Source of the DNA: Vicugna vicugna
Taxonomy: Eukaryota
Reading direction: 5' to 3'
Assembly (NCBI GenBank): GCA_013265495.1
Contig: MU057656.1
Location: 62,001 to 109,771 of the forward strand
DNA: 47,771 nt
Within the stretch, counting starts at the first letter, position 1, and each line of letters opens with the position of its first letter. A program made the translations under genes and the position numbers. The notes below the pieces were generated by a model. It was not told where the DNA came from, did no database searches, and was given only the letters and a program-made list of their open reading frames with translations. This document shows, in pieces, positions 1 to 47,771 of the stretch.

Positions 1-3000
1 TTTGGGCTGGAATACAGCCCATGACCATGTGGCTGGGAGAGGGCTTGATGCTGCTCCTGCCTGGTCAGTCATAAACATGTGACTGAGGCATTGGTCAGGG
101 CAGTGACATCACAGCCCACAGTAAAGAGAGCTGCTCCGGAACCAGTGTTGGGGGTAGGAGTGATCTGCTTGCCGGCACGCCCTGGGAGCTGCACAGATGA
201 AGACTCTAATGGAAGGCCTCTGGAAAAAGCAAGCTGAGCTTCCAAAACAGGATGAATACAGAAATAGTTCACATTAAAAGTGCACAGTCTCCAGGATACA
301 CTGACTACATCCTTGTTTAATCTGTTTCTATCTGTTCCATTTTTATTACCTGCTTAATTTTTACTTCTTAGGCAATTATATATACGCCCCCTTTTAAATC
401 CCATTGAAATTTTTTAAAAATATTTTTAATATTATTATTTTTCAAAACTCTGCTTCACCTTGCTCAACTATTATGTATTATACGATGTCTTCAAACATTT
501 ATTTCCCCCTCTTTAAAATTGTTTGTCTCCCTCTCTCTTTTTTCTGTTTTTTTAGTTGTATTACTACCTAGGTATTAGGTAGATAAACTACTTTAGGGCC
601 ACAATACATAACTGATACTCCATAAACCACAGTGCCAGAGAGGTATGAGCAAGACAAAGAAGCAGACAAACCATTACCACTTAAAAAACAAGAGAAATCC
701 CCTGAAAGAATGATAGGTGAAATATATATCAATAGCCTACTAGATCAAGATTTCAGAAGAGGATTGATCAAATGACTGAAGGAAATGAAAGATAATGTTT
801 AGAGATATAAAATAAGTTAGAAATGAAATGGAAGCTATAAGAAGAGCCGAGTAGTATAGGTAAACACATTGACTGAGATGAGTAATGATCTAAAGGGGTC
901 GCAAAGCTGACTAGATAATGCAAAGGAATGAATTATTGACCTAGAATACAGGACAATAGAAAGCACCCAATCAAAACAACTACAAGAGAAACAATGAGAA
1001 AGAAATGAAAAAAAATGAGAGACCTATGGGATAATAGAAAGCATGCCAGCATTGGCATGATACAATTCCCAGAAGGGGAGGAAAGATCAAAGGGGATTGC
1101 AAAGGTGTTTGAAGAAATCATGACTGAGAACTTCCCAAACTTAAAGAAGGAATCAGATATCCAAGTACAGGAAGCTCGCAGTGTCCCAAACAGGAAGAAC
1201 TCAAATAAACCCACAACAAGACATATAATTAAGATGGCCAGAGTCAAGGATAAAGAAACGATCCTAAAGGCAGCAAGAGAATAGCAAAGAGTGAGTTACA
1301 AGGGAATCCCCATAGGGCTCCCAGCTGATTTCACAACACAAATACTACAGAACAGAATGGAGTGGCAAGATATATTCAAAGTCCTGAATAAAAAAAGGAT
1401 ATACCCTTGGATACTTTAACCAGCAAGCCTATCCTCTTTGATAGAAGGAGACATAAAGGATTTCACAGACAAGAAAAAGCTACAAGAGTTTAGCAACTCT
1501 AGACCCATGTTAAAAGAAATATTGAAAGTCCTGCTCTAAAAAGAAAAGCAGCAGGATTCTATAGAAATTTGAAACACACTGCTGGAAAGGTGATAACTCA
1601 TGAACTACAAATAAAATAAACACAAAATTTTAAAACAAGACATACAAATCATTGAGAGTGGGAAAAGGGAGTAGGAAATTAGAGAATTTTTTCTTGGGAG
1701 GTCTTTCCTTTTAAAATGTTTGGTTCTCGGTAGGATGGTTTATGTTACTATCAGTTTAATAAAATCAGTTATACTAATGGTCTAATAGACTTATATAAAA
1801 GGGTAAAAACAAGACAAAAACATATTCAGGGAGTCACTAAACCTAAATAAATTTCATGATAATACAAAGGAAATTGACCAAACCAAAAAGTGAAGATTAA
1901 ACGAACAAAGAGGAAATACCAAATCAACTGGAATGATAAGGACAAAATGGCAATAAACACAAACATATCATCGATTATTGTAAAGGTTAATGGAGTAAAT
2001 GCTCCAGTCAATGTCATTGAGTGGCAGGCTGGATAATAAAGCAAGAACCTTCAATATGCTGCATATAAGAGACCCACTTCAGCGAGAAGGAAATATATAG
2101 TTTGAGAGTGAAAGGATGGAAAAGGGTATTCTATACAAATGGAAAAGAAAAAAAGCAGGTGTTGTAGTACTGACTTCTGACAAAATAGTCTTTAAAACAA
2201 AGGCCATAAAGAAAGATAAGGAAGGACATTTTATAATGATTGAAGCAGTGATACAAGATGAGGATATCACACTTGTTAATACATATGCATCAGATAGAGG
2301 ACTGCCTAAGTACATGAAATAATTACTAACAGATATTAAGGGGGATAGTGTTGGGAATCTAATCATAGTTGGAAATTTCAACACTGCATTAACATCACTG
2401 GACAGATCATCGAGATAGAAAATAAATTAGGCAACAGAGAATTTAAATAATACAATAGAAATATTACACTTGGTGGATATTTTCAGAGCATTGCACCCCC
2501 CCAAAAATAGTACATACATTCTTTTCAAGTGCACATGGGACATTTTCCAGGATTCATGATATACTTGGGCACAAAAGAAACCTCAGCAACTTTAAGAAGA
2601 TAGAAATTACCTCAAGCATCATTACTAAACACAATGTTATTAAGCTAGAAATCAACAACATAGAAACAAAAGAGAACAAAAGGAAAACATGGGGATTAAA
2701 CAATATGTTATTAAAAAATCTATGGGTCATAGAAGAAATCAAAGCTGAAATGAAAATGTACCTTGAGACAAAAGAAAATGAATGCAAAACCACAAAATTT
2801 TATGGGACACAGCAAAAGCAGTGTTGAGAGGGGAGTTTATAGCGATACATGCCTTCCTCATAAAGAAGAACAATCACAAATAAACAATTAAACCCATGAG
2901 GAGAATGAACTAGAAAAAGAAGAAAAAAAACCCCAAAAGACAGCAGAAGGAAGGAAATCATAAATATTGGTGAGGAAATAAATAAAATAGAGTTCTAAAA

Positions 3001-5785
3001 TACCATAGGAAATAAATCAACCATTTCAAAGGCTGATTTTTCAAAAAAGTAAGTAAAATCGACAAGCCTCTGGCCAAACTCAAAAGAAGAAAAGGGAGAG
3101 AGCACATATTATTAAAATAAGGTAGGAGAATTGGGAATTTACAGCTAATAAAATAGAAATACAGAATATCAAATGAGAATATTATGAAAAGTATATTGAA
3201 CCAAACTGGATATCCTAGAGGAGATGGACAATTTACTGGAAACATACAGTACACCAAGACTGAATCAAGAAGAAACTGACCACTTGAACATACAGAGCAC
3301 TTGAAATGAAATCAAAATAGCAATATAAAACCTCTCTACAAATAACAGTCCAGGACCGGACGGCTTCACTATGGAATTCTACCAAACATGTATCGAAGAA
3401 CTCATACCAGTCTTTCTCAAATTCTTCTAGAAGATTGAAAAGGAAGGAATACTCCCAAAGCCATTCTATGAAGCCAAAATTACTCAGATATCACAACCAG
3501 GCAAAGACAATACCAAACAAGACAATTATAAGCCTATATCGCTGATGAACACAGACGCAAATATCCTCATCAAAATAGTAGTGAATAGAATCCAAAAACA
3601 CAGAAAAAAAGATTATACATCATGACCAAGTGGGGGTTATGCCAGGGACACAGGGGTGGTTCAACATATGCAAATCAAGTCAATGTAACACAGCTTATCA
3701 ACAAGAGAAAGGACCAAAATCACATGATCATCTCATAGATGTAGGAAAACATTTGATAAAATTCAACACACACTTATGATAAAAAGTCTCACCAAAGTGG
3801 GCATAGAGGCAACATATATCAGCATCATAAAAGCTATAGATTACAAACCTACAGCCAGCATAGTACTCAAAGGTGAGAAAGTCAAAATCTTCCCACTAAA
3901 ATCTGGGACAAGACAAGGATGCACAATATCACCACTCCTACTCAACATAGTCTTAGAAGTCCTAGCCACAGAAATCAAACAAGAGAAAGAAGCAAAAGGG
4001 ATGCAAATTGGAAAGGAAAAGGTAAAAGTCTCAGTATATGCAGATGTTACTATGTATAGAATACCCTACAAGATCCAGACAAAAACTACTTCAGCTGATC
4101 GAAGAATTCAGCAATGTAGCAGGTTAAAAGATTAAGGTACAAAAATCAGTGGCATTTCATAAGCTAATGATTCAGATAACGCTATAGAGCTACAGACAAT
4201 ATGACAGCACTGTATTGGTAGGAAAAGTTACGTATAGGCCAATGGAACAGAATACAGAGCCCAGAAAGAAACCCACAAATTTTTGGTCAGTTAATCTTAC
4301 ACAAAGGAGGCAAGAAAATACAATGGAAGAGAGAAAGACTGTTCAGAAACTGGTGTTGGGAAAACTGGAGAGCAGCATTTAAATCAATGAAGCTAGAACA
4401 CTCCAAATGAAGCTAGAACACAATACACAAATATAAACTCAGAATGAATAAAAGACTTATACATAAGAAAATATTCAGTATACTTCCTAGTGGAAAATAT
4501 AGGCAAAACATTATCTTACATATGTCTCATAAATTTTCTCATAAAAAAATTAAAAGCAAGAATAAACAAATGAAACCTAATGAAACTTACAATCTTCTGC
4601 ACAGTAAAGAAACCAGAAGTCAAACAAAAATACAACCTACCGAATGGGAAAAAATCTGAATATGAAATCGACAAAGGCTTGATCTCCAGAGTATAGAAGC
4701 AGTGCATCCAACTGAATAAGAAAAAATAAATCACCCAATGCAAATATTGGCAGAAGACCTAAACAAGAAGTTCTCCAAGGAAGACATGCAAATGATCAAA
4801 AGGCACATCAGAAAATGCTCACTCACACTGATTATCAGAGAAATGCAAAAAATGGCAGAAGACCTAAACAAGAAGTTCTCCAAGGAAGACATGCAAATGA
4901 TCAAAAGGCACATCAGAAAATGCTCAGTATCACTCATTATCAGAGAAATGCAAATCAGAACTACAATGAGGTATCACCTCACAGCAGTCAGAATGGCCGT
5001 CATTCAAAAATTCACAAATGACAAATGCTGGAGAGGCTGTGGAGAAAAGGGAAACTTCCTTCACTGCTGGCGGCAATGCAGTTTGGTGCAGCCACTGTGG
5101 AAAACAGGATGGAGATTCCTCAAAAGCCTAGGAATAGACTTACCATATGACCCAGGAATCCCGCATCTGGCCATAAATCATGAAAGAACCCTACTTCTGG
5201 ATGACACATGCACCCGAATATTTAAAGCCAGCACTATTTACAATAGCCAAGATATGGAAACGGCCTAAATATCCATCAACAGTTGACTGGATTAAGAAGA
5301 GGTGGTATATTTATACAATGGAATACTGATCAGCCATATAAAGCGACAACAAAACGCCATTTTCAGCAACATGGATGATCCAGGGGAAAATCAGTTTAAG
5401 TGAAGTAAGCCAGAAAGAGAAAGAAAAATACTATATGAGATGGCTCATCAGTGGAATCTAAAAACAAAGCAAAACAAAACAAATAAAGCACAAATACAAA
5501 AGAGAAATAGACTCGCAGACAGAGAATAAAAGGTTTTGTTAGCAAAGGGGGCTGGGGGTGGGAAGAGATAGACTGGGAGGTATATATTGTAGGATAGATA
5601 AACAGGATTTTACTGTATAGCGCAGGGAAATATATAAAAGTTCGTACGGAAGCCCACAGTAGAAAAAATGGGACAAAAAATGTATATATTTTCCTTGTAA
5701 CTGAAAAACTGTGCTCTATGCTGGGATTGCAGACAACTTTGTAAAATGATTGTAAATCAATAAAGAAAACTTAAAAAAATTAAAA
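1..5785 (+). mobile_element. LINE-1, near full length (5' end beyond window), degenerate; camelid-like subfamily
   Basis: 5'UTR; ORF1 remnant ~645-1539 (RHIIIKMARVKDKETILKAARE); ORF2 remnant from ATG 1947 (endonuclease [54 protein letters not shown]-terminal [11 protein letters not shown]); AATAAA 5759-5764 and A-rich tail. Many stops and frameshifts. Confidence 0.95.
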
Positions 5786-5789
5786 CACA

Positions 5790-8700
5790 TGATCCTAAAT
5801 ATTAAATGTGTAAATATACATTACAGAGAAAAAGAGAACTATGCAAAAGAGCATGAAAACCAAAGATATTTTGTTTTTTTTTAAGATAAGCAAAGTCAAA
5901 AAACCTCTAGCCAGGTGCATCATGAAGAAAATAGAGATGCTGCAAAGAAATAAAGTAAGAAATAAAAGAAGAGAAATAACAATTCTTACCTCAGATATAC
6001 AAAAAGGGATCATTTTGACAACACTTACATTTGAATAAACTGGACAACTTAGAAGAAATAGACAAATGTCTAGAAAGAGACAGAGATAAGGAGAAACAAA
6101 TAATTTGAACAAACTGTTTTCTAGAAGAAAGAATCTGCATTTAAAAAAATCATTAAATAGAAGTGCAGATTTAAACAAATTCTGTGGAGACTATACAAAA
6201 ATACAAAGCAGAACTTATACTCTTCAAACTATTCAAAAATATTGAAGATGTGGGAAACTCCTAAATTAATTCTATGAAGAATTCATCACCCTGATAGCAA
6301 AACTAACAAAGAAACTACAGGCAAAGGGAACTTCTAGTCAATAAATTTGATAGATTTAGATGCAAAAATTCTACAAAATATTATTAGCAAACTAAATCCA
6401 GCAATAACAAAAATAAATCATTCACCATGATCAACGTGGTTTCATTCTCTTCTCACAAGAGAAGTTCAACATACACAAATCAATCAGTTTGATACACCAC
6501 ATTAGCAAAAGGAATAGAGAAAATGACATGGTCCCCCCAATAAATCCATAAAAAGTATTTCACAAAATTCAAAACTTATTCATTAAAACAACAACAACAT
6601 CAACAACAGCAACAACAACAGAAAACTCTTACCAAAGTAGGATTCAGGCAATATATCTCAACATAAATAAAGTCATTACTTAGAAACCCACAGGCAACAT
6701 AATATGCAAAAGTGAATAACTGAAAGCCAAATTAAGGAATAAGACAAGGATGCCCAATCTCAACATTTCTGTTAAACATAGTATGGGGAGTACTAGCAAC
6801 AGCAATCGGACAAGAAAAATAGTTATTCAAGTTGGATTGAATGAAGTTAAACTGTTATTATTTTAGATGACATGATAATCTATATAGAGATCCCTAAATA
6901 TTCTCCACACCAGAACAACTAAAACTAATAAAGACATTTTGCAAAGTAGCATGATTCATGATTAATATACTAAAAATGTCACATTTCTTTACACAAACTA
7001 TCAAATATTCCATAACTTAAAGAATCCATATGAAATCAGGTCATAAAATGAAAAACCTATGGAAAATCCGAGATAATAAAATCTATAGGACACTGAAAAA
7101 GAAATTTGAAGATGATGCAAAGAAATGGAAAGAAACTTCATGGTCTTAGTTTAGAAGAATTAATATTTTTAAAATATACATAGTACAAAATATGTCTACA
7201 GATATAAATTCATTCATATCCAACTACATGATATTTTCCACAGAAATTAAAACAGTCCTATGATTTGCATGGAACTGCAAAAGAACCAGAACCCCAAAAG
7301 GAACAATGAGGAAAAAGAACAAAGTTGGAGGCATAACCCATAACCCTCCCAGATCTCAGACTATAGTACAAAAATACAGTAATCAATACAGCACAATACT
7401 GGAGAACAAATAAACATCTATATCACTGGAACAGAACAGAGAGGCAGAAATAAAACATCAAAATTATGGTCAACTAAACTATGACAAAGGAAACAAAAAT
7501 ATACAATGCCTAAATAACAGTCTTCAGCAAGTGATGTTGAGAAAGCTAGAGAGCTATATGTAAATCAATCAAATTAGAACAATCACTCACACTGTACAAG
7601 AATAAATTCAAAATGTTTGAAATATCTGAATCTAATACATGACACAATAAAACTCCTGGAATTTAACATAGGCAAAACAAAACAAAAATTGTAGTAAAAT
7701 TTTCCTATGTCACACTCCCAAGCTGAAAACAATAAAGGTAAAATAAAGAAATAGGTCCTAAGTAAACTTAAAAGTTTCTACACAGCAAAATAAACAAAAT
7801 GATCAGATGAACTTTCAAACGGGAGAAAACAGTAGGAAACAATGCAATCAAGAGGTTAATTTCTAATATACACAAATATATCATACAACTCCATTTCAAA
7901 AATCTACAAACAACTCAGCCAGAAAATGAGCAGAAGACAATTCACTAAAAAAGACATACAAATGACAAACAGGAACATAAAAACGTGCTCACATTGCTAA
8001 TCATTATACAAAGGCAAGACAAAAATTATATAATATTTTACCCCACACTAGTGAGAAGGGCTGTCATCCAAATGTCTACAAATAATAAAGACTGGGGAGA
8101 TTCTGGAGAAAAAGGGACACTCCAATGCTGTTAGTGGGAATAAAAATTGGTGAAACCAGTTTGGAAACAGTATGGAAGTTCCTTTAAATAATAAATATAG
8201 ACCTATCATATGACAAAGCAATCCCACCCCTGGGCATATAAAACATAAATCCTGAAATTAAAGAATCCTAGGTTAAAATATAAGAAATACACTCTGACAT
8301 TGGACTTAATTTGATTCTACATATGTCTCCTCTGGCAAGGGAAGCAGAAGTAAAACTAACAAAATATGATTGTGTCACACTAAACAGATTTACACTGCAG
8401 AACAGACGAACAATATAATGAACAGTCAACCAACACAATGGTATAAAATATTTTCAGTTATAATTTCCAATAAAGTGTTAATATCCAAAATATATGGCAA
8501 ACTCTTAACCCCAAAACTACAACAAAAAAGAGCAAACAATTCAATTAAATAAAGTCCATAGGAAATGAATAGATAGATCTGAATCAATTTTCTGTAGAAA
8601 ACATAAAGTTTGCTATATGACATATGAAAATGTGTTCAGATTTATAAATTATTAGGATAGTCATAAACCAAAAATGAGACAATAACACACAATTGTCAGA

Positions 8701-8790
8701 AGGCTCTCACCAAAAAGAAAAGAAATAGATGTTGGTGAGATTGTGGAGAAAAAGGAACAACGTGGACACTCTTGATAGTAATGCAAAGTA
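5790..8790 (+). mobile_element. Older 5'-truncated L1 ORF2 fragments (main piece ~5790-8240, second C-terminal piece ~8240-8790)
   Basis: Degenerate ORF2 DNA (aagacaaggatgccca; ttagatgacatgata resembling the ADDM motif; ggaaacagtatggaagttcct). The ORF2 C-terminal region is read twice. Confidence 0.8.
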
Positions 8791-8846
8791 TTGATTCCAT
8801 TGCATATATACATCAAATATTTTTCATCCATTTTTCTGTCAAGGGA

Positions 8847-9299
8847 TGTTGGGATTGTAGGCCCCTGTCTGAAGGTTCTAGAGAATAAGCCCATGGGCTG
8901 AACTGATAAACAATCTGTGAGGAATGTCATAAATCCAGGCTGGATAAAAAATGGCCTACTCAATGTATCCAGTATGGATGGCTGGATAGCCTATGCTGGG
9001 TAAGATCCTCAGAGGAGGACAACCTAAGACAGGCACAGCCTGCTGGATAAGAGATGGCCTACTTAATGAAGTTCCGTGATGAAATTTGAAACAATCCTTG
9101 ATAATTTAACTTCCTACGCTTACTGTAGGAGCATGGGAAAATAAATAGCTTAAGATTATTAACATTGTTATAACATAGACTATATGTGAGGCATTGTGCA
9201 TGTCCTATATAAACCCTTCTTCTAAGATTCAATAAACAGAGAACTGCTTCACTTCTCTCCACACAGTGTTTGTGTGTAAATGATATCGTGCCACTGACA
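8847..9299 (+). mobile_element. Solo ERV LTR (~453 bp), copy A
   Basis: TG...CA termini, TATATAAA 9206-9213, AATAAA 9231-9236 followed by a GT-rich U5; flanks GGGA/GGGT (imperfect 4-bp TSD); no internal retroviral sequence. Confidence 0.8.
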
Positions 9300-9304
9300 G
9301 GGTT

Positions 9305-10170
9305 AATTTAATTTGTTGGGAGTATCTTAAAAGGATGTTCATTATATACAATGCTCTTTCTGCACATATTGAGATGATTATGTGAGTTCTTTTACTCATT
9401 CTATTAGTGTGGCATGTCACCTTTATTGATTTGAATATTTTGAAGTATCTTTAAACCCAGGGTTAAATAACTTTACTCAAATATGTTTATGATACATTAA
9501 GAGTGTTGTTGAATTCATTTTGCTTGTGTTTTGTTGAGAATTTTGGCACATATTTTCATCAGCTATAAAATTCTATATTTTGCATATAATGTCCTTTCTA
9601 GCTTTTTAAGCAAATAAATCTCACATCATAAAACTTGTTTGGAATCTTTCACCCCCTTCAAATTCTTGGAATATTTGGGGAAGTATTGGTGAATATTTGT
9701 CTTCAAATATATGACAGAATTCACCAGTAAAGTCGTCTTGTAAATTATTTCTGGTTTTCGAAGTTTGGATTATTGACTTACTCAAACAAACTTTTGCTCT
9801 ATTATCTTTCTAACTTTTCTTGATTCGGCATTGGAGGACATGTTTCTGGGAATTTGTCTTTTGTTCTAGATCATTCAAATCTTTGGCTTGTGATAATTTC
9901 TTATGGTGCTTTGCATCTCTGAAATATAAGTGGTAACATCTTCTCTTTTATTTCTAATTTTATTTGAGTCTTTACTTTCTTAGCCAACCTAAACTTTTGT
10001 CCAGTTTTTGTTAAAAATAAACATACTTAGGTGTATATTTTTTTATCTTTTCAATTGTTTCTCTTGTTATTTGCCTTACTCTCATTCATTCAATTTTCTT
10101 TTTTATTGTTTTGTTTTCTCCTAGATCCTTGAAGTGTAAAATTATGTAGTGTGAATTTTTATATTTCATT
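9305..10170 (-). mobile_element. Old L1 ORF2 fragment
   Basis: Minus-strand translation HIIISICAERAL resembles L1 RT HMIISIDAEKAF. Confidence 0.75.
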
Positions 10171-10184
10171 TATTATTAAATATT

Positions 10185-13100
10185 TTTTATTTAGTTATAA
10201 TTTATTTATTTATTTATTTTATATATTTGCATATTATTCATTTATTTATAATTGATTACTGCCATTTACAATGTGTCAATCTGTGGTGTATAGCACAGTG
10301 TCCCTGTACATGCATATATTTTTGTGCCTATTAAACATTACTTCACATTATTTAAATTACTGCCCTGTGTCATACAAGTGAAAATTTGAAAAAAATCTAT
10401 TTTTATATATAGTGGAAAAAATTTATGAATCTTCATCTTCCAAATATATCCTCTCACAGCCCCTTTCCGCAGTAATCATAAAATTGTTTAGTAGATCTGT
10501 GAGTGTGATTAAATTTTGTAGGTGAAATCATACTGTTCTCATCTAAATTTTTTTTAAGTTTCCACTTATGTCATGTAATGTATTATTTTTCTTTCTCTTT
10601 CTGACTTACTTCAATTAAAATGACACTTTTTGGGGACATCCATTTTGCTGCAAATGTCATTGTTTTTATCATTTTTTATTGCATAATATTATTCCATTGT
10701 GTAAATACGGCATAATTTCTGAATACTGTCATCTGTTGTTGGACAAATAGGTTGCTTCCATGTCATGACTGCTGTATATAGCACTGCTAAAAACATTGGA
10801 GTGCAGGTGTCTTTTTGAATTAGGGTTCCCTTTGATATACTTCCAGAAGTGGGATTGCTGGATCATATCTTAAGTCTATTTTTATTCTTTTGAGGAATCC
10901 CCATCCTGGTTTCCACAATGACTGCACCAATCTACATTACTTCCAACAGTGTAGGAGGGTCCCCTTTCTCCACAGCTTCCCCAGCATTTAATGTTTGTGG
11001 AATTTTGAACGATGGCCATTGTGATTATTGTGAGGTGATACTTCATTATAGTTTTGAATTACCCTTCTCTGATGATGATATTGAGCAATTTTTTTTCATA
11101 TATCTATGTGGCATTTGTATGTCTCTATTGAAGAATGGCTTGTTTAGGGCTTCTGCCCATTTTCAGATGGGATTTCTTGTTTTTTATTATTATTATTACA
11201 TTGTGCGAAGTCTTTATATATTAGAAAATAAGACTTTGTCAGTCACATCACTTCTAAATACTTTCTTTAAACCTGTAGGTTGTCATTTTGCTTTGTTTAT
11301 GGTTCCCTCTGCTGTGCAAAAGCTTATAAGTTTAATTAGGTCAAATTTATTAATTTTGCCCTTACATCCATTACCTGGGTAGGCTGTACTTGGAGATCAT
11401 TTCTGACATTTATCTCAGAGTGTTTTGCCTATGTTTTCTTCTAGGAGATTTACTGTGTCTTGCCTAACATAAAAGTCTTCAAGCCATTTTGAGTTTATTC
11501 TTGTGTATGCAGTGAAGGAGTGTTCTAACTCCTTTGCTGTGATGCTGCTATCCAGTTTTCCCAACAACAATTTGTGAAGAGATGGTCTTTTCTCTGTCAT
11601 ATTACTGGCTACTCTGTCAAAGATTAATAGAACATAGGCCTGTTGATTTATTCCTAGGCCCTCTATTCTGTTCCAATGGTCCATATGCCTGCTTCTGTAC
11701 CAATATCATGTCATTTTGATTACGGTAGCTTTGCAATAGCGTATGGAGACCAGTTGGTTTATTCCTCAAGACTGTTTCTTTTTCTTTATTATTGCTTTGG
11801 AAATTATGGATATTTTATGACTGTGTGTAAATCTTAGGATCATTTATTTCAGTCCCAAAAAAAAGATTTGCTTAATTTGTTAGGAAATCACATTAAGTCT
11901 GTGGATTGCCTTGAGCAGTATGACCAATTTAACCATTTTTTTCCTTCCATTACGAGACCATTGGGTATCTTTTCAATTCTTCAAATCTTTTTTGATTTCC
12001 TCAATCAATGTTTTCTCGTTCTCCATGTATAATTCATTCACCTCTTTGGTCAGATTTATTCTTAAGCATTTTATAGTTTTCGGTGCAGTTATAAAAGCAG
12101 TTGTCTCTATACTTTGTTTTCTTGTTGATTCAGTGGTAGTGTAAGGAAATGCAATTGGCTTTTTGTACATTACTCTGGGTACCTTACCCAGTTCCTTTTT
12201 TAGCCTAAGTATATTTTGTGAAGCTTTTACAGTTTTCTCTTTATAGTATCATGTCTGCATATCATGACAATTTTACCTCTTCTTTTCCAGTCTGAATCAT
12301 TTTATTTCTTTTCCTAGCCTGATCATTGTGGTTAGGAATTCCAAGACTATATTGAATTGAATTTGGGAGAATTGGCAACCTTGTCTTGTCTCACGTTTTT
12401 GTGGGAAGGGTTTCTGCTTTTCACCATTGAGTATTTTGCTGGCTATATGTTTGTCATAAATAGCTTTCATTATGTTGAGACATGGTCCCTCTATGCACAC
12501 TGTGATAAGAACTTTTATTGCAAATATGTGTTAATTTTTATCAAATGCTTTCTCTGCATCTACTGAGATGTTCATGTGGTTTTTTTGTCCTCTCTGTTAT
12601 TGATATGGTGAATCACAATTGATTGATTGATTTTCATAAGTTTAACCATCCTTCTGTTCCTGGGATGAACCTAACTTGACCATGTTTTATGATCTTTTTT
12701 TACATGCTGTTGGATTCTGTTTGTCAGTACATTCTTAAAGACATTTACATCTATGTTTATCAAGGATCTTGGCCTATAGTTTTCTTTTTGGGGTAGTGTC
12801 TTTATCTGGTTTTGGAATCAGGTTGATGTTGGCCTTACGGTGTGAGTTTGGTTGTACTGTCTCCGTATCAATCTTTTGGAAGAATTTGAGGAGGACTGGT
12901 ATGGATTTTTCTTTGTATGTTTGGTCAAATTCCCCAGTGAAACTACTTGGGTCTGAATTTTTGTTTGCAGATATTTTTTATTTTATTGATAATACTATTC
13001 CAATTCTGGTGATCTGTCTATTCAAATGGTTTATTTGTTCTTGATGAATTATTGATGGGCCGAATGTTTCCAAAATCTTCTCCATTTCTTCCTGGTTATC

Positions 13101-16684: not shown

Positions 16685-16800
16685 CATAAGTGTATTTATC
16701 AACAACATTTTGGAACACTTAACAGAAGGCATAAGGGTATGGATTATAAAGATGACAAGAAAATTTATTCATTCTAGGGACTGAAAAACCTCTGAGTGAA
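16685..16800 (-). mobile_element. Possible ancient L2 3' fragment
   Basis: atttatcaacaacattttggaacactta...ataaagatgacaagaaa resembles the remembered L2 terminus; highly diverged. Confidence 0.35.
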
Positions 16801-30221: not shown

Positions 30222-30279
<58 letters not shown>

Positions 30280-33200: not shown

Positions 33201-33965
33201 CTAATTTGTTTTCAACTTCCCTCTTAGATTTGTCTTTGCTGCATCCCATACATTTAATGAAGCTGTGTTTTCATTGTAATTTGTCTCCAGGTATGATTTT
33301 ATTACCTCTTTCATTTCATCATTGACCTTGTTTTATTTTTTTTTTTAACGGATGTTGTTTGACCTCATGTTTGTGCTTTTCCTACTCTTCTTTCTAAAGT
33401 TCATGCACAGTCTGTTAATTTTGCGTATGGAAAAATACTTGCTGTAATCTATATTTGCTTAAAGTTCCTGAGGTTCATTTCATGACATAATTTGTGGTTA
33501 ATTCCTTAGATAACATCCTGTGCACACTTGAAATATTTATGTCTTCTGCTTTTCTGATGCAGTGTCCAAAAGCTCAGTTAGTTTCAAATGATCTAATTTG
33601 CTATTAAAATCTCTGTTTCCTTACAGATATACTTTCTGAATGATCTGGCTATCAGAATAGTGAGGTGTTAAACTCATCTACAATTATTGCTTTATAATGA
33701 ATTAATTCTTTCATGTCCACTAAAATTTAATTTTATACTTATGATCTATGGTGGTGTTACCATATGCAGTTTAATGAGTGTAATACCCTATTTTAATATT
33801 AATCTCTTTTTCTTTATATAATATCATATTTTTTCATTTTGGCCCCTTTTTTAAATGTACTTTGTATGAGTTGAGCATTGCAATCTGCACTTTGTTTTCA
33901 TTTCCATGGGATATCTTTTCCATTTATTTCCAGAATATGTACATCTTCCACCAAAAACTGAGAGT
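29892..33965 (-). mobile_element. Old L1 (3'UTR and ORF2 remnant up to the endonuclease region)
   Basis: 3' end ttttaattgaagtacag...; minus ORFs [39 protein letters not shown]. Confidence 0.88.
30222..30277. repeat. Perfect (TCTA)14 tetranucleotide microsatellite
   Basis: 14 uninterrupted TCTA units counted, inside an L1 3'UTR. Confidence 0.95.
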
Positions 33966-33969
33966 TTTT

Positions 33970-36900: not shown

Positions 36901-39900
36901 TGTAAATGTTAATGGACTAAATGCTCCAGTCGAAAGTCATAGAGTGGCATGCTGGATAATAAAGCAAGAACCTTCAATATGCTGCATACAAGAGACCCAC
37001 TTCAGAGAGAATGACACATATAAATTGAGAGCGAAAGGATGGAAAAGGGTATTCCATACAATTGGAAAAGCGAAAAAAAAGGTGTTGCATTACTGATTTC
37101 AGACAAAATACTCTTTAAAACAAGGGCCATAAAGAAAGATACAGAAGGACATTTTATAATGATTGAAGGAGTGATACATTATGAAGATAGCACCCCACTT
37201 GTTAATACATATTCACCAAATACAGGTGCACCTAAGTACATAAAATAATTACTAACAGATATAAAGGGTGAGTCACATTTGTAGACTTCAACACTGCTTT
37301 AACATCAATGAACAGAACATCGAGACAGAAAATAACAGAAAAATTAAATAATACAATAGAAATTTTAAACTTGGTGGATATTTTCAAAACATTGCAACCC
37401 CCAAAATACGATATACATTCTTTTCAAGTGCACATGGAACATTTTCCAGGATTCATGATGTACTTGGACACAAAAGAAACCTCAGCAATTTTAAGAAGAT
37501 AGAAATTACCTCAAGCAACTTTACTGACGACAATGCCATGAAGCTAAAAATCAACAAAAGGGAAACAAAGGAGAACAAAGGAAAACATGGGGATTAAACA
37601 ATATGTTATTTAAAAACCAATGGGTCAATGAACAAATCAAAGCTGAAATAAAAAAGTACTTTGAGACAACAGAAAATGAAAGGAAAACCACACAAAATTT
37701 ATGGGACGTGGCAAAAGTAGTTCTGAGAGGGGAATTTATAGCGATAAAGGCCTTCCTCAAAAAGAAAAAAAACCACAAATGAACAATTTATCCCACCAGC
37801 AGAATGAAGTAGAAAAAGAAGACCAAAAATACCCAAAATACAGCAGAAGGAAGGAAACCATCAATATTGGGGGGAAATAAAAAAAATAGAGATTAAAATG
37901 AGTATAGGAAAAAAGTCAACCAATCCAAAAACTGATTTGCAAAAAAGTAACTAAAATAGAGAAACCTCTGGCCAAACTCAAAAAGAAGAAAAGAGAGAGA
38001 GCACAAATTAGCAAAATAAGAAAAGAGAATGGAGAAATTACAACAAAAAAATAGAAATACAGAATATCAAATGACAATATTATGAAGACTATATGGAACC
38101 AAACTGTATAACATAGAAGAGATGGACAAGTTTCTGGAAACATACTGTCCACCAAGAATGAATCAAGATGAAACTGACCCCTTGAAAAAACAGAGCACTA
38201 GAAATGAAATCAAAATAGCAATATAAAACCTCCCTACATATGAAAGTCCAGGACCGGATGGATTCACTGAGGAATTCTACCAAGCAATCAAAGAATTCAT
38301 ACTAGTCCTTCTCAAACTCTTCCAGAAGATTGAAAAGGAAGGAATACTCCCAAAGACACTGTATGAAGCCACAATCACCCTGATACCACAACCAGGCAAA
38401 GACACTACCAAAACAGAGGATTATAGGCCAATATCACTGATGAACACAGATGCCAAAATCCTCACCAAAATAGTAGCAAATACAATCCAACAACACAGAA
38501 AAAAGATTATATATCATGACCAATTGGGGATCATGCCAGGGACACAGGGGTGGCTCAACTTATGTAAATCACTCAATGTATTGCAGCACATCAAAAAGAG
38601 GAAAGACCGAAACAACATGACAATCTCAATAGATGCAGGGAAAGCATTTGATGAAATTCAACATTCACGAATGATAAAAATTCTCACCAAAGTGGGCATA
38701 CAGGGAACATATCTCAGCATCATGAAAGTTATAGATAACAAACCTACAGCCAGCATAATACTCAAAGGCGAGAAAGTCAAATTCATCCTACTAAAATCTG
38801 GGAGAGTAAAAGGATGCACACTATCATGACTCCTACTCAAGATAGTCTTGGAAGTCCTAGCCACAGCAATCAAACAAGAGAGAGGAGAAAAAGTGATGCA
38901 AATTGGAAAGGAAGATATAAAATTTAAACTATATGCAGATAATATGTTACTATTTATAGAAAACCCTACAAGATTCAGAATGAATTTACTACAGCTGATC
39001 ACAGAATTCAGCATGGTAGCAGGTTACAAGATTAAGGTACAAATATCAGTGGTAATTCTTAACGCTAAAGATTCAGATAATAATATAGATATACAGTCAA
39101 CATGACAGCACTGTATTGGTAGAGAAACATACATATAGGCCAATGGCACAGAATACAGAGCCCAGAAATGAACCCACAAATTTTGGTCAATTAGTCTTNN
39201 NNNNNNNNNNNNNNNNNNNNNNNNNNNNNNNNNNNNNNNNNNNNNNNNNNNNNNNNNNNNNNNNNNNNNNNNNNNNNNNNNNNNNNNNNNNNNNNNNNNN
39301 NNNNNNNNNNNNNNNNNNNNNNNNNNNNNNNNNNNNNNNNNNNNNNNNNNNNNNNNNNNNNNNNNNNNNNNNNNNNNNNNNNNNNNNNNNNNNNNNNNNN
39401 NNNNNNNNNNNNNNNNNNNNNNNNNNNNNNNNNNNNNNNNNNNNNNNNNNNNNNNNNNNNNNNNNNNNNNNNNNNNNNNNNNNNNNNNNNNNNNNNNNNN
39501 NNNNNNNNNNNNNNNNNNNNNNNNNNNNNNNNNNNNNNNNNNNNNNNNNNNNNNNNNNNNNNNNNNNNNNNNNNNNNNNNNNNNNNNNNNNNNNNNNNNN
39601 NNNNNNNNNNNNNNNNNNNNNNNNNNNNNNNNNNNNNNNNNNNNNNNNNNNNNNNNNNNNNNNNNNNNNNNNNNNNNNNNNNNNNNNNNNNNNNNNNNNN
39701 NNNNNNNNNNNNNNNNNNNNNNNNNNNNNNNNNNNNNNNNNNNNNNNNNNNNNCAAATCAAAACTGCAATGAGGTATCACCTCACAACAGTCAGAATGGA
39801 CATCATTTAAAAATCCACAAATGACAAATACTGGAGAGGCTCTGGAATAAAGGGAACCGTCCTTCACTGCTGGTGGCAATTTGGTGCAGCCACTGTGGAA

Positions 39901-40577
39901 AACAGGATGGAGATTCCTCAAAAGCCTAGGAATAGGCTTAGCATATAAGCAAAGAATCCAGCTTCTGGGCATAAATCCAGATGGAACCCTACTCCAGGAT
40001 GACACCTGCACACCATTGTTCATAGCCAGCACTATTTACAATAGCCAAGACATAGAAACAGCCTAAGTGTCCATCGACAGTTGACTAGATAAAGAAGAGG
40101 TGGTATATTTATACAATGTAATAGTAGTCAGTCTTATAAACTGACAACATAACGCCGTTTTCAGCAACATGGTTGATCCTGGAGAAAATGTCTACGTGAA
40201 GTAAGCCAGAAAGTGAAAGAAAATTACCATATGAGAAGGCTCATGTGTGGAATCTAAAAACAAAATCAAACCAAACAAAAAACTCATAAATACAAAACAG
40301 AAATAGACTCACAGGCAGAGAATACAAAGTTTTGGTTGCCAAGTAGATGGGGTGTGGAAGTAGATATGCTGGGAGGTCAAAATTGTAAAATAGATAAACA
40401 GGATTGTACTGTATAGCACAGCGAAATGTATAAAAGATCTTACGGCAGCTCACAGGGGAAAAAAATGGTACAGCAAATGTATATATGTTCATTGTAACTA
40501 AAAAATTGTGCTCTACAATGGAATTTGAGACAACTTTTTAAAATGATTAAAAATCAATAAAAAAAAGTAAAAAAAAA
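33970..40577 (+). mobile_element. Full-length degenerate LINE-1 (paralog of 1-5785)
   Basis: 5' end gaggggtgaggcaaagttggtggagtag (decayed caagatggcgg-type start), ~1.6 kb 5'UTR, ORF1 remnant (RHIIKMARVKDKEMILKTARE), ORF2 EN/RT remnants (ICCIQETHF, LYADNM), AATAAA 40556-40561 and A tail. Confidence 0.95.
39199..39753. other. Assembly gap (N run)
   Basis: N characters. Confidence 0.99.
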
Positions 40578-40579
40578 TG

Positions 40580-43500
40580 ACCCTAAATATTACAGGTGTA
40601 AATATAAATTAGAGAGAAAAACAACTACGCAAAGGAGAAGTAAAATCAAAGATTTTGTTTTTGTTTTCTTCTTAAGATAAGCAAAATCAAAAAACCTCTA
40701 GCCAGGTGCATCTTGAAGAAAAGAGAGATGCTCCAAAGAAAATGTCAGAAATAAATGTGGAGAAATAACAATTGTCCCTCAGATATACAAAAAAGCGATC
40801 ATTTTGTCAACACTTACATGCCAATTAACTGGACAACTTAGAAGAAATAGACAAATGTCTAAAAGGAGACAGAGATAAGGAGAAACAAATAATTTGAACA
40901 AACTGTTTACTAGAAGAAAGAAAGAATCTGCATTTAAAAAATCATTTAATACAAGTGCAGATATAAACAACTCCCATTGAAAACTGTACAAAAATACAAA
41001 ACAGAACTTATACTCTTCAAAATATTCAAAAATAGTGAAGATGTGGGAAACTCACAAATTCTATGGAGCTTTCATCACCCTGATAGCAAAGCCAACAAAC
41101 AAAGTACAGGCAAAGAGAATTTCAAGCCAATATCTTTGATTGATATAGATGCAAAAATTCTAGAAGCTATTATTAGCAAACTAAATCCGGCAATACCAAA
41201 AATGAATTATACACCACGATCAACTTTAATTCATTGAAGGGTCATAAGAGAGGTGGAACATATATGAAATCAATCATTTTGATACACCACATTAACAAAA
41301 GAAAAAGGGAAAATGACGTGGTCATCCCAATAAATCGATAAAAAACAATTCACAATATTCAACATTTATTCATTAAAATAGCAGCAATAACAGCAACAAC
41401 AAAAAAACAACAGAAACAACAACAACAGAAACCTCTTACCAAAGAAGGATTCAGGAAATATATCTCAACATAACTAAAGTCATTAATAACAGACACACAG
41501 ACAGCATAATATGCAAAAGTGAATAACTGAAAGACAAATTAAGGAATAAGAAAAGGATACCCACTCTCACCATTTCTATTTAACATAGTATGGGAAGTCT
41601 CAATCAACAGCAATCAGAGAAGAAAAAGTTATTCAAGATGGATTGAATGAAGTAAAACTATTATTATTTTAGATGACATGATAATCTATATAGAGAACCC
41701 TAAAGATTCTCCGCTCCAGAATGACTAAAATTAATACAGACATTTAGCAAAGTAGCATTATTCATGATTAATGTAAAAAAATTGTCACATTTCTTTAAAA
41801 TAAGAATGAAATATTCCATAATTTAAAAAATCCATATGATATCAGATCAAAAATGAAAAACCTATGGAAAAAACAAGATGATAAAGTCTATAGGACACTG
41901 AAAAAGAAATTTGAAGATGAGGCAAAGAAATGGAAAATATCTCAAGGTCTTAGTTTAGAGGAATTAATATTTTTAAAATATACATACTACAAAAGATGTC
42001 TACAGATATAAAGTGATTCAGATCGATATACATGATACTTTTCAAAGTAATTAAAAGAGTCCTAAGATTTGTATAGAACTGCAAAAGTACCAGAACTGCA
42101 AAAGAAACAAGAGGAAAACGAACAATGTTGGACTCATAACCCATAACCCTCCCAGATCTCAGACTATATTACAAAATCAGTAATCAAAACAGCACAATAC
42201 AGGAAAACGAACACAACTATATCACTGGAACAGAACACAGAGGCAGAAATAAAAAACATTACATATAAACTAAATTATGACAAAGGAAACAAAAATACAC
42301 AATGCCTAAAAGACAGTCTTCAGCAAGTGATGTTGGAAAGCTAGAGAGCTACATGTAAATCAATGAAATTAGAACACTCCCTCACACTGTACAAAAATAA
42401 ACTCAAAATGTTTGAAATATCTGAATGTAATACATGACACAATAAAAATCCTGGAAACTAACATAGGCAAATCAAGACATAAATTGCAGCGAAATTTTCT
42501 TATGTCAATCTCCCAAGCTGAAAACAATAAAAGCAAAATAATCAAATAGGTCCTAGTTAAACTTAAAACCTTCTACACAGCAAAATAAACAATATGAAAA
42601 GATGAAATTCCAAATGGGAGAAAACATTAGGAAACAATGCTATCAACAAGAGGCTAATTTCTAAAATACACACTTCGTTCATAAAACTCCATTTCAAAAA
42701 TCTACAAACAACTCAGCCAGAAAATTAGCAGAAGACCATTTTCTGAAGAAGACACACAGATGTCAATCAGAAACTTAAAAACATGCTCACATAGCTAATC
42801 ATTATACAAATGCAAGACAAAAATAAAATAATGTTTTACCTCACACAAGTGAGAAGGGCTGTAATCACAATGTCTACAAATAATAAACACTGGGGAAGTT
42901 GTGGAGAAAAAGGGACTCTCCAACGCTGTTGGTGGGAATGAAAATTGGTGCAACCACTTTGGAAACAGTATGGAAGTTCCATTAAATAATTAAAATAGAA
43001 ATATCATATGACACAGAAATCCCACTCCTGGGTATATAAAGTATAAAACATGAAAACAAAGAATCGTAGGGTAAATTACAAGAAACACATTCTGACATTG
43101 GACTGAAATTGATTCTACATATGTCTCCCCTGGCAAGGGAAGCAGAAGCAAAACTAACAAAATATAATTTTATCACTCTAAACAGATTTACACTGCAGAA
43201 GAAATGAACAATAAAATGAAAACTCAACCAACACAATGGGAGAATATATTTGCAAGTGATATTTTCCAATCAAGTGTTAATATCCAAATATATGGCAAAC
43301 TCTTACCCCACAACAACAACAAAAAAGACCAAACAATCTATTAAAAAAATGTCTGTAGGAACAGAATAGATAGATCTGAATCAATTATCTGTAGAAAACA
43401 TACAGCTGGCTAAATCACACATGAAAATATGTTCAGAGTTATAAATAATTAGGAAAATCATAAACCAAAAGTGAGAAAAGACCTCCCAATATTCAGAAGG

Positions 43501-43585
43501 TTCTCATTATAAATAAAAGAAACAAATGTTGGTGAGATTGTGGAGAAAATGGTACACTGTGGACACTCTTGATAGGAATGCAAAG
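40580..43585 (+). mobile_element. Older L1 ORF2 fragments (paralog of 5790-8790)
   Basis: Collinear with copy A, including the (CAA)n tract and the doubled C-terminal piece. Confidence 0.8.
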
Positions 43586-43643
43586 TATTCATTCCATTGC
43601 ATATATACAACAAATTTTGTTCATCCAATGTTTTGTCAAGGGA

Positions 43644-44095
43644 TGTTGGCTTTCTAGGCTCCTGTCTGAAGGCTCTAGAGAATAAGCCCATGGGCTGAAC
43701 TGATAAACAAGCTGTGAGGAATGTCACATATCCAGGCTGGAGAAGAAATGTCCTAATCAATGTATCCAGTATGGATGGCTGGATAGCCTATGATAGGTAA
43801 GACCCTCAGAGGAGGACAACCTAAGACAGGCACAGCTGGCTGGATAAGAGAAGGCCTACTTAATGAAGTTCCGTGATGAACTTTAAAACAATCCTTGATC
43901 ATTTAACATCCTGTGCTTACTGCAGGAGCATGGGGCCTAAGTTGCTTAAGATTATTAACATTGTTATAACTTAGATGATATGTGAGGCATTGTGCATGTC
44001 CTATATAAACCCTTCTTCTAAGAATCAATAAACAGAGAACTGCTTCGCTTCTCTCCACACAGTTTTTGTGTGTATATGAAATTGTGCCACTGACA
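43644..44095 (+). mobile_element. Solo ERV LTR, copy B
   Basis: TG...CA termini, TATATAAA, AATAAA, and the same GGGA/GGGT flanks as 8847-9299. Confidence 0.8.
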
Positions 44096-44099
44096 GGGT

Positions 44100-44970
44100 T
44101 AATTGAATTTGTTCTGAGTGTCTTAAAAGGATGTTGCATTATATACAATGCTCTTTCTGCACCTATTGTGATGGTTATGTGAGTTTTATTTCTCATTCTA
44201 TTAGTGTGGCATGTCACCTTTATTGATTTGAAAAATTTGTAGTATCCTTAAACCCAGGGATAAATCCCTCTACTCAAGTATGTGTATGATACATTAAATA
44301 TTTTGTTGAATTTGTGTTTCTTGTGTTTTGTTGAGAATTTTGGCACATATGTTCATCAGGGTTTATATTCTATATTTTGCATATAATGTCCTTTCTAACA
44401 TTGTAATGCAAATAAAGCTGGCATCATAAATCTAGTTTGGATACTTTCACCCACTTCAAAATCTTGGAAGATTTGGGTAAGAATTGGTGAAAATTGTCTT
44501 CAAATGTATGACAGAATTCACCAGTAAAGTCATCTTGTAAATTTTTTCTGGTTTGGGAGGTTTGGAATACTGATTTACTCATACACACTTTTGCTCTATT
44601 TAATTTTGTAATTTCTTCATGATTCAGTATTGGAAGACATATGATTCTGGGAATATGTCTTTTGTTCTAGGTCATTCAAATTGTTGACTAGTGGAAATTT
44701 CTTCTGATTCTATGCACCTCTACACATCTACAGTATCTTCTCTTTTATTTCTAATTTTATTCGAGTCTTTATTTTCTTAGCCAACCTAAACGTTTGTCCA
44801 CTTTATGTTTAAAAGAAACAGACTTAGGTATATTTTTTTATCTTTTCAATTGTTTCTCTTGTTATTTCCCTTACTCTCATTCATTCAATTTTCTTTATTC
44901 TTTCTGTTTTCTCCTAGTTCTTGATGTTTAAATTTATGTAGTGTGATTTTTGTATTTCTTTTATTATTAA
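44100..44970 (-). mobile_element. Old L1 ORF2 fragment (paralog of 9305-10170)
   Basis: Collinear with copy A. Confidence 0.75.
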
Positions 44971-44974
44971 ATAT

Positions 44975-47771
44975 GATATTTACTTATTTATTCATTCATT
45001 CATTCATTCATTTATCTATTTACTTACTTATTTACTTATTTATTCATTTATTTATCATTGAAGTACTTCCATTTACAATGTGTCAATCTATGGTGTATAG
45101 CACAGTGTCCCGCATCATGCATATATTTGTGTGCCTATTAAAGTAAACTTCATGATATTTACATACTGTCCAGTGTTATACAAAAGGCATTTTGAAAAAA
45201 TCTATTTTTATATATAGTGGATAACATTTATAACTCTACAGCTTCCAAGTATATCCTCTCCTATGCCTTGTCTGCAGTAACCATAAGAGTATTAAGTAGA
45301 TCTGCAAGTGTGTTTCAGTTTTGTAGATGAAATCATAGTGTTCTTATCCAAATTGTTTTTTTAATGTTCTACATATGTCATATCATGCATTATTTTTCTT
45401 TCTCTTTCAGGCTTACTTCATTTAGAATGTCACTTTTTGGGGACATCCATTTTGCTGCAGATGTCATTGTTTTATCATTTTTTATGGCAGAATATAAATC
45501 CATTGTGTAAATATGGCATAAATTCTGTAAACTGTCATCTGTTCATGGACAATTAGGGTGTTTCCATGTCGTGACTTTTGTATATAGCACTGCTAAGGTC
45601 ATAGGGGAGCAGGTGACATTTTGAACTATGGTTCTCTCTGATATATACCCAAATGTGGGATTGCTGGATCATATGTTAAGTCTAGTTTTATTCTTTTGAT
45701 TAATCCCCATCCTGTTTTCCACAATGACTGCACCAAACTACATTCCTACCAATAGTGTAGAAGTGTTCCCTTTCTCCACAGCTTCCCCAGCATTTATTGT
45801 TTGTTGACTTTTGAATGATGGCCATTGTGACTATTGTGAGGTGATACTTCATTTAAGTTTTGAATTGCCCTTCTCTGCTAATGATATTGAGCAATTTTAT
45901 TTTCATATTTCTATGTGACATATGTATGTCTCTAATGGAGAATTGTTTGTTTAGTGCTTCTGCCCATTTTCAGATAGGGTTTCTTGGTTATTTTTTATTA
46001 TTATTAGGTTGTATGATGTCTTTATATTTTGGAAATTTAGCCTTTGTCAGTTGCATCACTTCTAAATATTTTCTTTAATCCTGTAGGTTGTCATTTTGCT
46101 ATGTTTATGGTTCCCTTTGCTGTGCAAAATGTTTTAAGTTTAAATAGGTCCCATTTATTAATTTTGCTCTTACATCCATTACCTGGGTAGGATGTTCTAG
46201 GAGTTCATTGCTGAGATTTTTCTCAGAGTGTTTTGCCTGTTTTCTTCTAAGAGTTTTACTGTGTCTTGGCTTACATTTTAGTCTTCAAGCCATTTTGAGT
46301 TTATTCTTGTGTATGGAGTGAAGGAGTGTTCTAACTCCATTGCTTTGCATGCTTATATCCAGTTTTCCCAACACCAATTGCTGAAGAGATGGTCTTTTCT
46401 CTGTCATACTCTAAGCTACCCTGTCAAATATTAATTGAACATAGGCATGTAGATTTATTCCCAGGCTCTCTATTCTGTTCCATTAGTCCATTTGCCTGTT
46501 TCTGTACCAGTATCATGTCGTTTTGATTATTGTAACTCTGCAATAGTGTATGGAGACAAGGCGGTTTATTGCTACAACCTCTTTTAGTCTTCAATATTGT
46601 TTTGGAAATTATGGATCTTTTTTGATTCTATATAAATCTTATGATCATTTGTTCATTCCTAAAAAAGAAATGTTTTGTATATTTTGATAGGCACTCCGAT
46701 TAAGTCTGTGGATTTCCTTGGGCAGTATGGCCATTTTTACAATATTATTTCTTCCAATACGGGACCATTGGGTATCTTTTCAATTCTTCAAATCTTTCTT
46801 GATTTTCTCAATCAATGTTTTCTTCTTCTCCATGTGTAAATCATTCACCTCCTTGGTCAGAGTTATGCTTAAGCATTTTATAGTTTTGGGTGCAGTTATA
46901 AAAGGGGTTGTTTCTATTCTTTGTTTTCCTGTTGATTCAATGGTAGTGTAAAGAATCCTAATTGGTTTTTGCACACTAATCCATCTACCTTGCCCAGTTC
47001 CTTTTTTAGCCTAAGTAATTTTTTGTGAAACTTTTACACTTTTCTATATATAGTGTCATGTCTGCATGTCGTGACAATTTTATCTCTTCTCTTCCAGTCT
47101 GAATCATTTTATTTCTTTTTCTTGCCTGATCATTGTGGGTAGGACTTCCAAGACTATATTGAATTGAAATTGTGAGAATGGGCATCCTTGTCTTGTGTCA
47201 GGTCTTTGTGGGAAAGTTTCCAGTTTTTCACCATTGAGTATTTTGCTGGCTATATGTTTGTCATAAATAGCTTTCATTATGTTGAGATGTGGTCCTTATA
47301 TGCCCACTGTGATAAGAACTTTTATTGCAAATATGTGTTAAATTTTATCAAATGCTTTTTCTGCATTTACTGAGATGATCATATCATTTTTGTCTTCTCT
47401 TTTGTTGATATGGAGTACCACAATTGATTGATTGATTTGCATATATTAAACCATCCCTGTGTTCCTGGGGTGAACCTAACTTGTCCATGGTGCATGAGCT
47501 TTCATTTACATGCTGTTGGATTCTGTTTGTTAATAATTTCTTAAGGACATTTACATCTATGTTTATCAATGATATTGGCCAATAGTTTTCTTTTTGTGGT
47601 AGTGTCTTTGTCTGGTTTTGGTATCAGTTTGATTTTGGCCTTATGGTGTGAGTTTGTGAGCACTCTCTCCATATCAGTCTTTTGGAAAAGTTTGAGGAGG
47701 ACTGGTGTGGATTTTTCTTTGTATGATTTTTCAAATTCCCCAGTGAAGCTATTTGGGTCTGAATTTTGTTT
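44975..47771 (-). mobile_element. LINE-1 3' part (paralog of 10185-12966), continues beyond the window
   Basis: Collinear with copy A; ORF2 RT remnants (MINIDVNVLKKLLTNRIQQHV). Confidence 0.92.

Follow-up and report, generated by a model that had tools for sequence, protein, structure and literature searches.

A 47,771-nt stretch of Vicugna vicugna DNA (contig MU057656.1 positions 62,001 to 109,771 of GCA_013265495.1; hereafter the window, whose own numbering gives all coordinates below) contains a broken copy of HSFY, a testis gene, surrounded by L1-derived DNA, together with a 12.9-kb block that occurs twice in the same direction. We consider, with moderate confidence, that the best explanation of the window is an old array of ~35-kb HSFY-like units, all in the same direction and mostly off the Y chromosome, of which the window shows one period.

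An old direct duplication

Self-BLASTN of the window gave two direct and mutually collinear matches: 1-4298 against 34929-39198 (84.2% identity, offset 34,928) and 4951-12966 against 39754-47771 (85.7%, offset 34,803). Between them lie the N gap at 39199-39753 and a 105-bp tandem duplication in the first copy. The two copies of the block are as follows.

1..12966: copy A of the duplicated block, 86.6% identical to copy B over 12,168 sites; its left end is the window edge
34929..47771: copy B of the duplicated block, defined by self-BLASTN and global alignment; its right end is the window edge

The recurrence of 1-12966 at 34929-47771 with the same order and junctions of elements, as claimed in the initial annotation, was confirmed by self-BLASTN, global alignment, and a check of the junctions. 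The tail of the first L1, both ends of a long terminal repeat (LTR), a microsatellite, and the end of the minus-strand L1 are in register in both copies. Other L1 pairs among the matches listed (the 105-bp tandem excluded) are only 63–74% identical over at most 2.3 kb. The shared junctions, and an identity far above that range, indicate a true segmental duplication beyond common L1 ancestry. Independent L1 insertions as the source of the repeat are ruled out by the same junctions and by the identity of 84–86% compared with 63–74%. The match reaches both window edges with no internal breakpoint, and both of its ends are set by these edges; the part observed in two copies amounts to just 12.9 kb of the proposed 34.8-kb unit.

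In the global alignment, 10,533 of the 12,168 sites match (86.6%; Kimura two-parameter distance 0.148), and the longest identical run is 63 bp. The identity is uniform over 13 bins (homogeneity p 0.28), indels are few (104 per 1,635 substitutions), and in four polarised segments the private changes number 199 and 210 on the two copies, pointing to similar decay of both. The even divergence and the similar private counts give no sign of recent conversion. Since the copies, ~13–15% apart, are just 86.6% identical over the aligned block, the duplication is old and is not a homogenised amplicon; a young homogenised amplicon is ruled out by this identity together with the 63-bp longest run. The ~13% divergence was absent from the initial annotation, which correctly mentioned four N gaps (located at 14449-14487, 14805-15015, 29585-29760, and 39199-39753).

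A two-exon HSFY pseudogene

The HSFY copy stands in the single complete period, where the initial annotation had put it.

17590..18096, plus strand: exon 1 of the HSFY pseudogene (HSF DNA-binding domain)
18097..18570, plus strand: GT-AG intron of 474 bp
18571..19302, plus strand: exon 2 of the HSFY pseudogene

The identification is borne out by the Pfam domain HSF_DNA-bind (PF00447, E 5e-12) and by the closest matches, which are camelid HSFY-like proteins (76–82%); the copy also nests among HSFY proteins in a tree. As in the HSFY family, the gene has two exons, and its single intron follows the DNA-binding domain. Retention of the GT-AG intron shows that the copy arose via DNA duplication, and a retrocopy origin is ruled out by the same intron. 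The reading frame is broken by three stops (codon 29, positions 17874-17876 inside the DNA-binding domain, and positions 19246-19248) and by three frameshifts, two of them in exon 1 (near 17740 and 18080) and the third caused by a 34-bp tandem duplication within exon 2, which makes the copy a pseudogene.

Two alpaca gene models, P0005 and P0007, end at the residue of the late stop at 19246-19248, and both start downstream of codon 29. These are possibly shared lesions of an amplified dead sub-lineage. The exon 2 sequences of P0005 and P0007 are identical and their exon 1 sequences differ, a pattern that suggests a gene model stitched across two units.

Comparison with the published alpaca HSFY arrays

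Alpaca Y contigs carry 26 HSFY copies according to the portions of Jevit et al. 2021 (PMC7830431) available to us. There, contig tig223, a sequence of 297,467 bp with a GC content of 33.3% and 67.4% long interspersed nuclear elements (LINE), holds nine same-direction copies, or one per ~33 kb, and contig tig1 holds 16 copies in 1.12 Mb, an average spacing of ~70 kb. The window, with a period of 34.8–34.9 kb, a GC content of 33.1%, and ~75% L1 (a crude estimate: the share of non-N bases matching the window's own L1s), is close to the tig223 values. The duplication also has the form expected of a tandem array, namely direct, collinear repeats with shared junctions over 12.9 kb.

The host sequences of alpaca HSFY-like proteins were taken from the best 120 of 160 protein matches. 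Among the matches listed, several clusters share a host-sequence length: four at 99.4 Mb, three at 4.7 Mb, two at 78.5 Mb, and two at 26.4 Mb. The agreement with tig223 and the several diverged HSFY-like models per alpaca sequence make it plausible that the HSFY gene itself recurs at the 35-kb period, and across possible locations an array appears likely. The next units predicted in the initial annotation, at about +52.4 kb and -17.3 kb, follow correctly from the arithmetic of the period.

Chromosomal location

The initial annotation proposed a Y-linked array. Nothing that we tested supported Y-linkage, and it is weakened by tree position, host-sequence lengths, and primer fit. On these sequence comparisons an off-Y location is modestly favoured; a Y location appears less probable.

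A tree of 46 proteins, obtained by a quick search without bootstrap, included pig, ruminant, primate, horse, and carnivore outgroups. The window copy fell within a star-like clade of 13 rows (11 alpaca-named proteins, one further protein, and the window copy) with a Shimodaira-Hasegawa approximate likelihood ratio test (SH-aLRT) support of 96. This clade was sister to a Camelus pair (dromedary and wild camel) with an SH-aLRT support of 99. Two other quick trees agreed on the placement of the window copy (support 86–92). The alpaca-only character of the clade rests on protein records, among which camel pseudogenes with no such record would be invisible.

Among the matches listed, eight of the 16 alpaca-named HSFY-like clusters lie on sequences of 26.4–99.4 Mb (four on 99.4, two on 78.5, and two on 26.4 Mb); the alpaca Y is estimated at 15–20 Mb. 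The host-length column is credible because it gives 25,917,078 for a sheep record, exactly the length of the telomere-to-telomere sheep Y. At two alpaca loci there are near-identical pairs, each with one small and one large sequence, as if from two assemblies. VicPac3.1 and earlier assemblies derive from one female alpaca.

The alpaca Y HSFY transcript in print matches a camel HSFY at 94.39%, a nucleotide identity for which ~89% amino-acid identity is expected (0.86–0.92 by neutral simulation). The window copy has 76–78% amino-acid identity to camel HSFY, and the best row of the alpaca group has 81.5%. Against the window, the male-specific forward primer has 5/24 mismatches and the reverse primer has no good site at the expected place. 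Because the primers fit poorly, the published male-specific result does not speak for the window copy. For three tig1 forward primers, no convincing site was found in the window (5–7 mismatches). In the parts of PMC7830431 available to us, tig223 is named once in the supplement text, in the Table S1 row of the HSFY transcript primer pair, and the Table S1 text lists no contig-specific genomic primer for it. The inter-repeat identity of the window also falls short of the benchmark for Y amplicons, which reach 99.99% in the bull. Chromosome painting with the alpaca Y gives signal on autosomal centromeres and heterochromatic short arms in alpaca but hardly any in camels, and alpaca-expanded, pseudogene-rich blocks are described on chromosomes 11, 17, and 36 in the accessible text of PMC13751797.

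Several further observations touch on location. P0102, a wild-camel HSFY-like protein of full length encoded on a 121-Mb sequence, shares just 67% identity with dromedary HSFY and branches basally to the remaining camelid copies; by sequence it would be an older off-Y copy. Deer and muntjac HSFY-like records stand on sequences of 147–166 Mb. Words sampled from the non-L1 island around the pseudogene (653 in number) were carried at a share of 0.22–0.29 by 20 of the 24 listed sequencing runs (four coded organisms, seven studies), and at a half by none of the 24. Two runs from one sample (X14 and X19, with 245 and 25 million contig letters) gave 0.22–0.23, like whole-genome runs. No RNA run carrying these words was among those listed, which is neutral as to testis expression. 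Neither word count is used as evidence.

A transversion-rich substitution spectrum

Copies A and B differ by 658 transitions and 977 transversions, a ratio of 0.67 (corrected 0.69) and a transition share of 0.38–0.43. Transversions are in excess in every one of the 13 bins and in each of the six elements (raw ratio 0.58–0.81), and the commonest exchange class is A/T (384). Five independent L1 pairs in the window gave corrected ratios of 1.07–1.36. The polarised counts were 192 transitions to 217 transversions (~0.9), and the polarisation filter would favour transitions. For reference, Bactrian camel single-nucleotide polymorphisms (SNPs) are 65:35 transitions to transversions (~1.9), and human segmental duplications have a ratio of 1.70 compared with 2.11 for SNPs in the text seen of PMC2640414. 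Base composition was rejected as the cause of the low ratio, since it would give ~1.8 at kappa 4, compared with an implied kappa of 1.5. Alignment gaps were likewise rejected, the ratio being 0.63–0.66 far from gaps and at isolated mismatches.

At the protein level, camelid HSFY paralogues gave 0.59–0.60, and neutral simulation fits a DNA ratio of ~0.7, not 2. This value makes a fault of the window sequence alone unlikely. A first control set gave 1.03 against the camelid 0.60 (p 1.7e-4). Better controls, in which some rows were used in more than one pair, gave 0.59 for the alpaca group, 0.73 for ruminants (p 0.13), 0.80 for primates (p 0.13), and 0.50 for the Camelus pair. A camelid-specific spectrum at the protein level was therefore rejected, its significance being lost with the better controls. 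Low ratios may be common in HSFY regions. HSFY amino-acid changes lean to transversions in several lineages (0.5–0.8), below the 1.5 expected neutrally at a DNA ratio of 2. Mutation rates are raised 1.1–4.1-fold near human centromeres. No report of so low a ratio was found in the literature searched, and the available portions of PMC10463633, PMC11062924, PMC6537670, and bioRxiv 2025.08.28.672513 contain nothing on the spectrum.

Alternative explanations

The window might be one period of an old, decayed, male-specific HSFY array on the Y like tig223, multiplied via unequal sister-chromatid exchange on the non-recombining chromosome. We regard this account as possible and take it seriously, while giving it less credence than an array mostly off the Y. 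It draws on the period, GC, and LINE content shared with tig223, and on the fact that HSFY belongs to the ancestral gene set of the Y and has been amplified there in cattle, pig, and sheep. The low transition share of ruminant HSFY and of the Camelus pair also means that the spectrum is no argument against a Y home. This account has to contend with the position of the window copy apart from the camel proteins in the tree and its low identity to them, with relatives on 26–99 Mb sequences, and with the poor primer fit; the male-specificity of tig223 itself rests on primers that fit the window copy badly. A further account, improbable in our judgement, is a mosaic segmental duplication, in which the L1 block alone underwent a local duplication, or the units were irregular, with HSFY a separate passenger between them and no fixed 35-kb period. 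It draws on the fact that just 12.9 kb is seen twice and that several junctions unite non-collinear L1 pieces. PMC13751797, in its accessible text, calls the alpaca pseudogene blocks dispersed and "not a simple tandem array", and this description, like the tig1 spacing, counts against a regular period. A mosaic sits poorly with a match that spans to both window edges unbroken and with a period near the tig223 average. An artefact, whether of spacing created by scaffolding across the four gaps (three of which lie between or at the edge of the copies) or of base errors inflating the divergence and the transversion share, is very improbable. Counting for an artefact, a near-random spectrum (ratio 0.5) is what base errors would be expected to give. 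Against it, a 13% difference is far over plausible assembly error, the differences are spread uniformly over the block and fall equally on the two copies, with few indels, and the publicly annotated alpaca HSFY-like proteins differ among themselves as much as from the window copy.

Several points weigh against an array that lies mostly off the Y. The window contains no second HSFY and no second copy of 12967-34928 (21.9 kb), and the best structural match, tig223, is published as male-specific Y. The host sequences of the alpaca proteins are known by size alone, and sequences of large size may include Y pieces placed there by mis-scaffolding. The trees come from quick, unbootstrapped searches, and some of the gene models behind them are truncated or chimeric. 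The transcript comparison assumes that the camel record at 94.39% resembles P0004/P0013, and the six-member cluster P0013 could hide a true alpaca Y protein. HSFY has 0 occurrences among the pseudogene blocks in the available part of the VicPac4 satellite paper. The target-site test at the full-length L1 gave a weak 9-bp candidate, and the crossover step of the origin proposed below is one that we infer.

Elements of the proposed unit

The remaining elements of the window are listed below.

1..5780, plus strand: decayed L1 with part of the 5' untranslated region (5'UTR), open reading frame (ORF) 1, ORF2 (~1956-5455), and an A tail
4737-4954: 105-bp tandem duplication within L1 ORF2 of copy A, halves 94% identical
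5792..8800, plus strand: older 5'-truncated L1 fragments (ORF2 from ~aa 335); copy-B counterpart from 40584
8846..9298, plus strand: solo-LTR-like element with TG...CA ends, TATA at 9206, AATAAA at 9231, and an internal 27-bp repeat
9323..10150, minus strand: old L1 fragment (ORF2 ~aa 380-599); right end approximate
10420..14800, minus strand: decayed L1 with the whole ORF2 (14333 to 10574), running into N gaps; the part to 12966 recurs in copy B
15044..16256: two old L1 ORF2 fragments in opposite orientation
16300..22600: non-L1 island with the HSFY pseudogene, present once in the window
23315..27655: old L1 fragments (minus strand 23315-26087, plus strand 26108-27655)
29900..33970, minus strand: old L1 (ORF2 ~aa 50-1209) abutting the copy-B L1 start; ends approximate
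33972..40576, plus strand: copy-B full-length decayed L1 (~6.6 kb) with the whole GC-rich, CpG-depleted 5'UTR; start approximate

Because the copy-B L1 has its whole 5'UTR from ~33972, the unit probably reaches beyond the left edge of the window; in 33975-34930 of this region the GC content is 50% and CpG is nearly gone (observed/expected 0.03). The full-length L1 at the apparent unit boundary may be a chimera left by unequal L1-L1 crossover, since its flanks are non-collinear L1 pieces, but a weak 8/9 match that overlaps the A tail is possibly a decayed target-site duplication. The solo-LTR-like element is flanked by non-collinear L1 pieces, and its counterpart at 43643-44096 is 91% identical, above the 85–87% of the remaining block. 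The halves of the 105-bp tandem differ by six transversions and no transitions, and their copy-B counterpart falls in an N gap.

Proposed origin and age

The duplicated block is a pre-assembled L1 mosaic that was duplicated once, after which both copies decayed evenly. For the array mostly off the Y, we propose that each ~35-kb unit would consist of an intron-containing HSFY-like gene within L1-saturated DNA, and that the family would have radiated once in the South American camelid lineage, lying mostly off the Y in repeat-rich duplication blocks. A Y segment with HSFY would have been copied as DNA into heterochromatin common to the alpaca Y and autosomes. Unequal crossing-over of misaligned L1-rich units could then have produced a burst of copies, as the star-like tree suggests. 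Once the exchange of units had ceased, the copies would have drifted apart by 13–15%, and the window copy would have gained its three stops and three frameshifts. The window unit has no protein function and is a passenger or relic of the amplification.

The split of copies A and B dates to 53 My at 1.4e-9 per year (the rate from PMC7331169) or to 26 My at 2.8e-9 (the horse Y rate with a 6-year generation). The camel split is placed at 11–25 My, and a radiation after it would need a rate of 3–6.7e-9. A two-part fit of the 0.149 changes per site gives ~0.036 of ordinary change (~13 My at 1.4e-9 per year) and ~0.11 of random-like change. A bolder version of the proposal, speculative and rather doubtful as a whole, would describe a large South American camelid family of HSFY copies with the intron retained. 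These would have left the Y for autosomal or X heterochromatin and, after the camel split, radiated in ~35-kb L1-built units, in a compartment mutating several times faster than the genome and mostly without regard to base.

Relation to known systems and implications

The window is a variant of the known HSFY amplification, and same-direction amplification in alpaca is already in print. As described in the available text of PMC7830431, tig1 and tig223 resemble the window in their two-exon HSFY and same-direction copies, and tig223 also in its ~33 kb per copy, GC of 33.3%, and LINE content of 67%. Unlike the broken window copy with its poor primer fit, those copies are called complete and male-specific. 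The window copy is also ~10 points further from camel HSFY than is expected of the published alpaca Y transcript. The bull Y long-arm amplicons (PMC7706723 and PMC11436988, in the parts seen) likewise place HSFY within large tandem units alongside pseudogenes. In contrast to the 86.6% and the dead copy here, they reach 99.99% via ongoing gene conversion and are mostly intact. In the pig Yp block (Skinner et al. 2015, PMC4460688, in its accessible portions), ~100 copies lie in repeat-rich DNA and one class is non-functional, in likeness to the window; the differences are that the pig amplification is an independent one on the Y and that its short form is under purifying selection. Pig HSFY proteins group apart from the camelid ones in the 46-protein tree.

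The alpaca blocks on chromosomes 11, 17, and 36 offer another comparison, as far as the available text of PMC13751797 describes them. They share with the window multi-copy decayed genes in repeat-rich DNA expanded relative to camels. The alpaca-only clade and the long host sequences would be in keeping with a South American camelid block of this sort, multi-copy in alpaca, absent or reduced in Camelus, and on autosomes. The blocks on chromosomes 11, 17, and 36 differ in their cargo, which in that text comprises NEK10, ATF5, FMN2, ABHD17A, and others and no HSFY, and in being dispersed rather than tandem. Human segmental duplications resemble the window in a paralogue transition/transversion ratio below that of SNPs (PMC2640414, in the text seen), but the ratio here (0.67–0.69) is far lower, at a divergence higher than in their 90%-plus set. 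Neither off-Y camelid HSFY copies nor a monomer map were found in the literature searched, in the parts of it that were available; subscription papers, including the VicPac4 paper, lay outside that search.

HSFY amplification is commonly read as a Y phenomenon of male fertility or X-Y conflict, kept by gene conversion. Were the window just Y-linked, its contribution would be no more than a monomer map for an array already in print; the unit junctions are simple probes for the question of location. Should long-read assemblies confirm a ratio of ~0.7 across 12 kb of DNA in a mammal, this would point towards a local mutational regime that is directly measurable. A decaying family located largely off the Y would represent a Y-to-autosome escape followed by amplification, and assays of HSFY copy number and of male markers in alpaca would then need copy-specific design. 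Should the escaped-family proposal hold, some of the HSFY copies counted in print for the alpaca "Y" might also be present in females, and the array would naturally preserve the trace of a transversion-rich mutational process acting locally.

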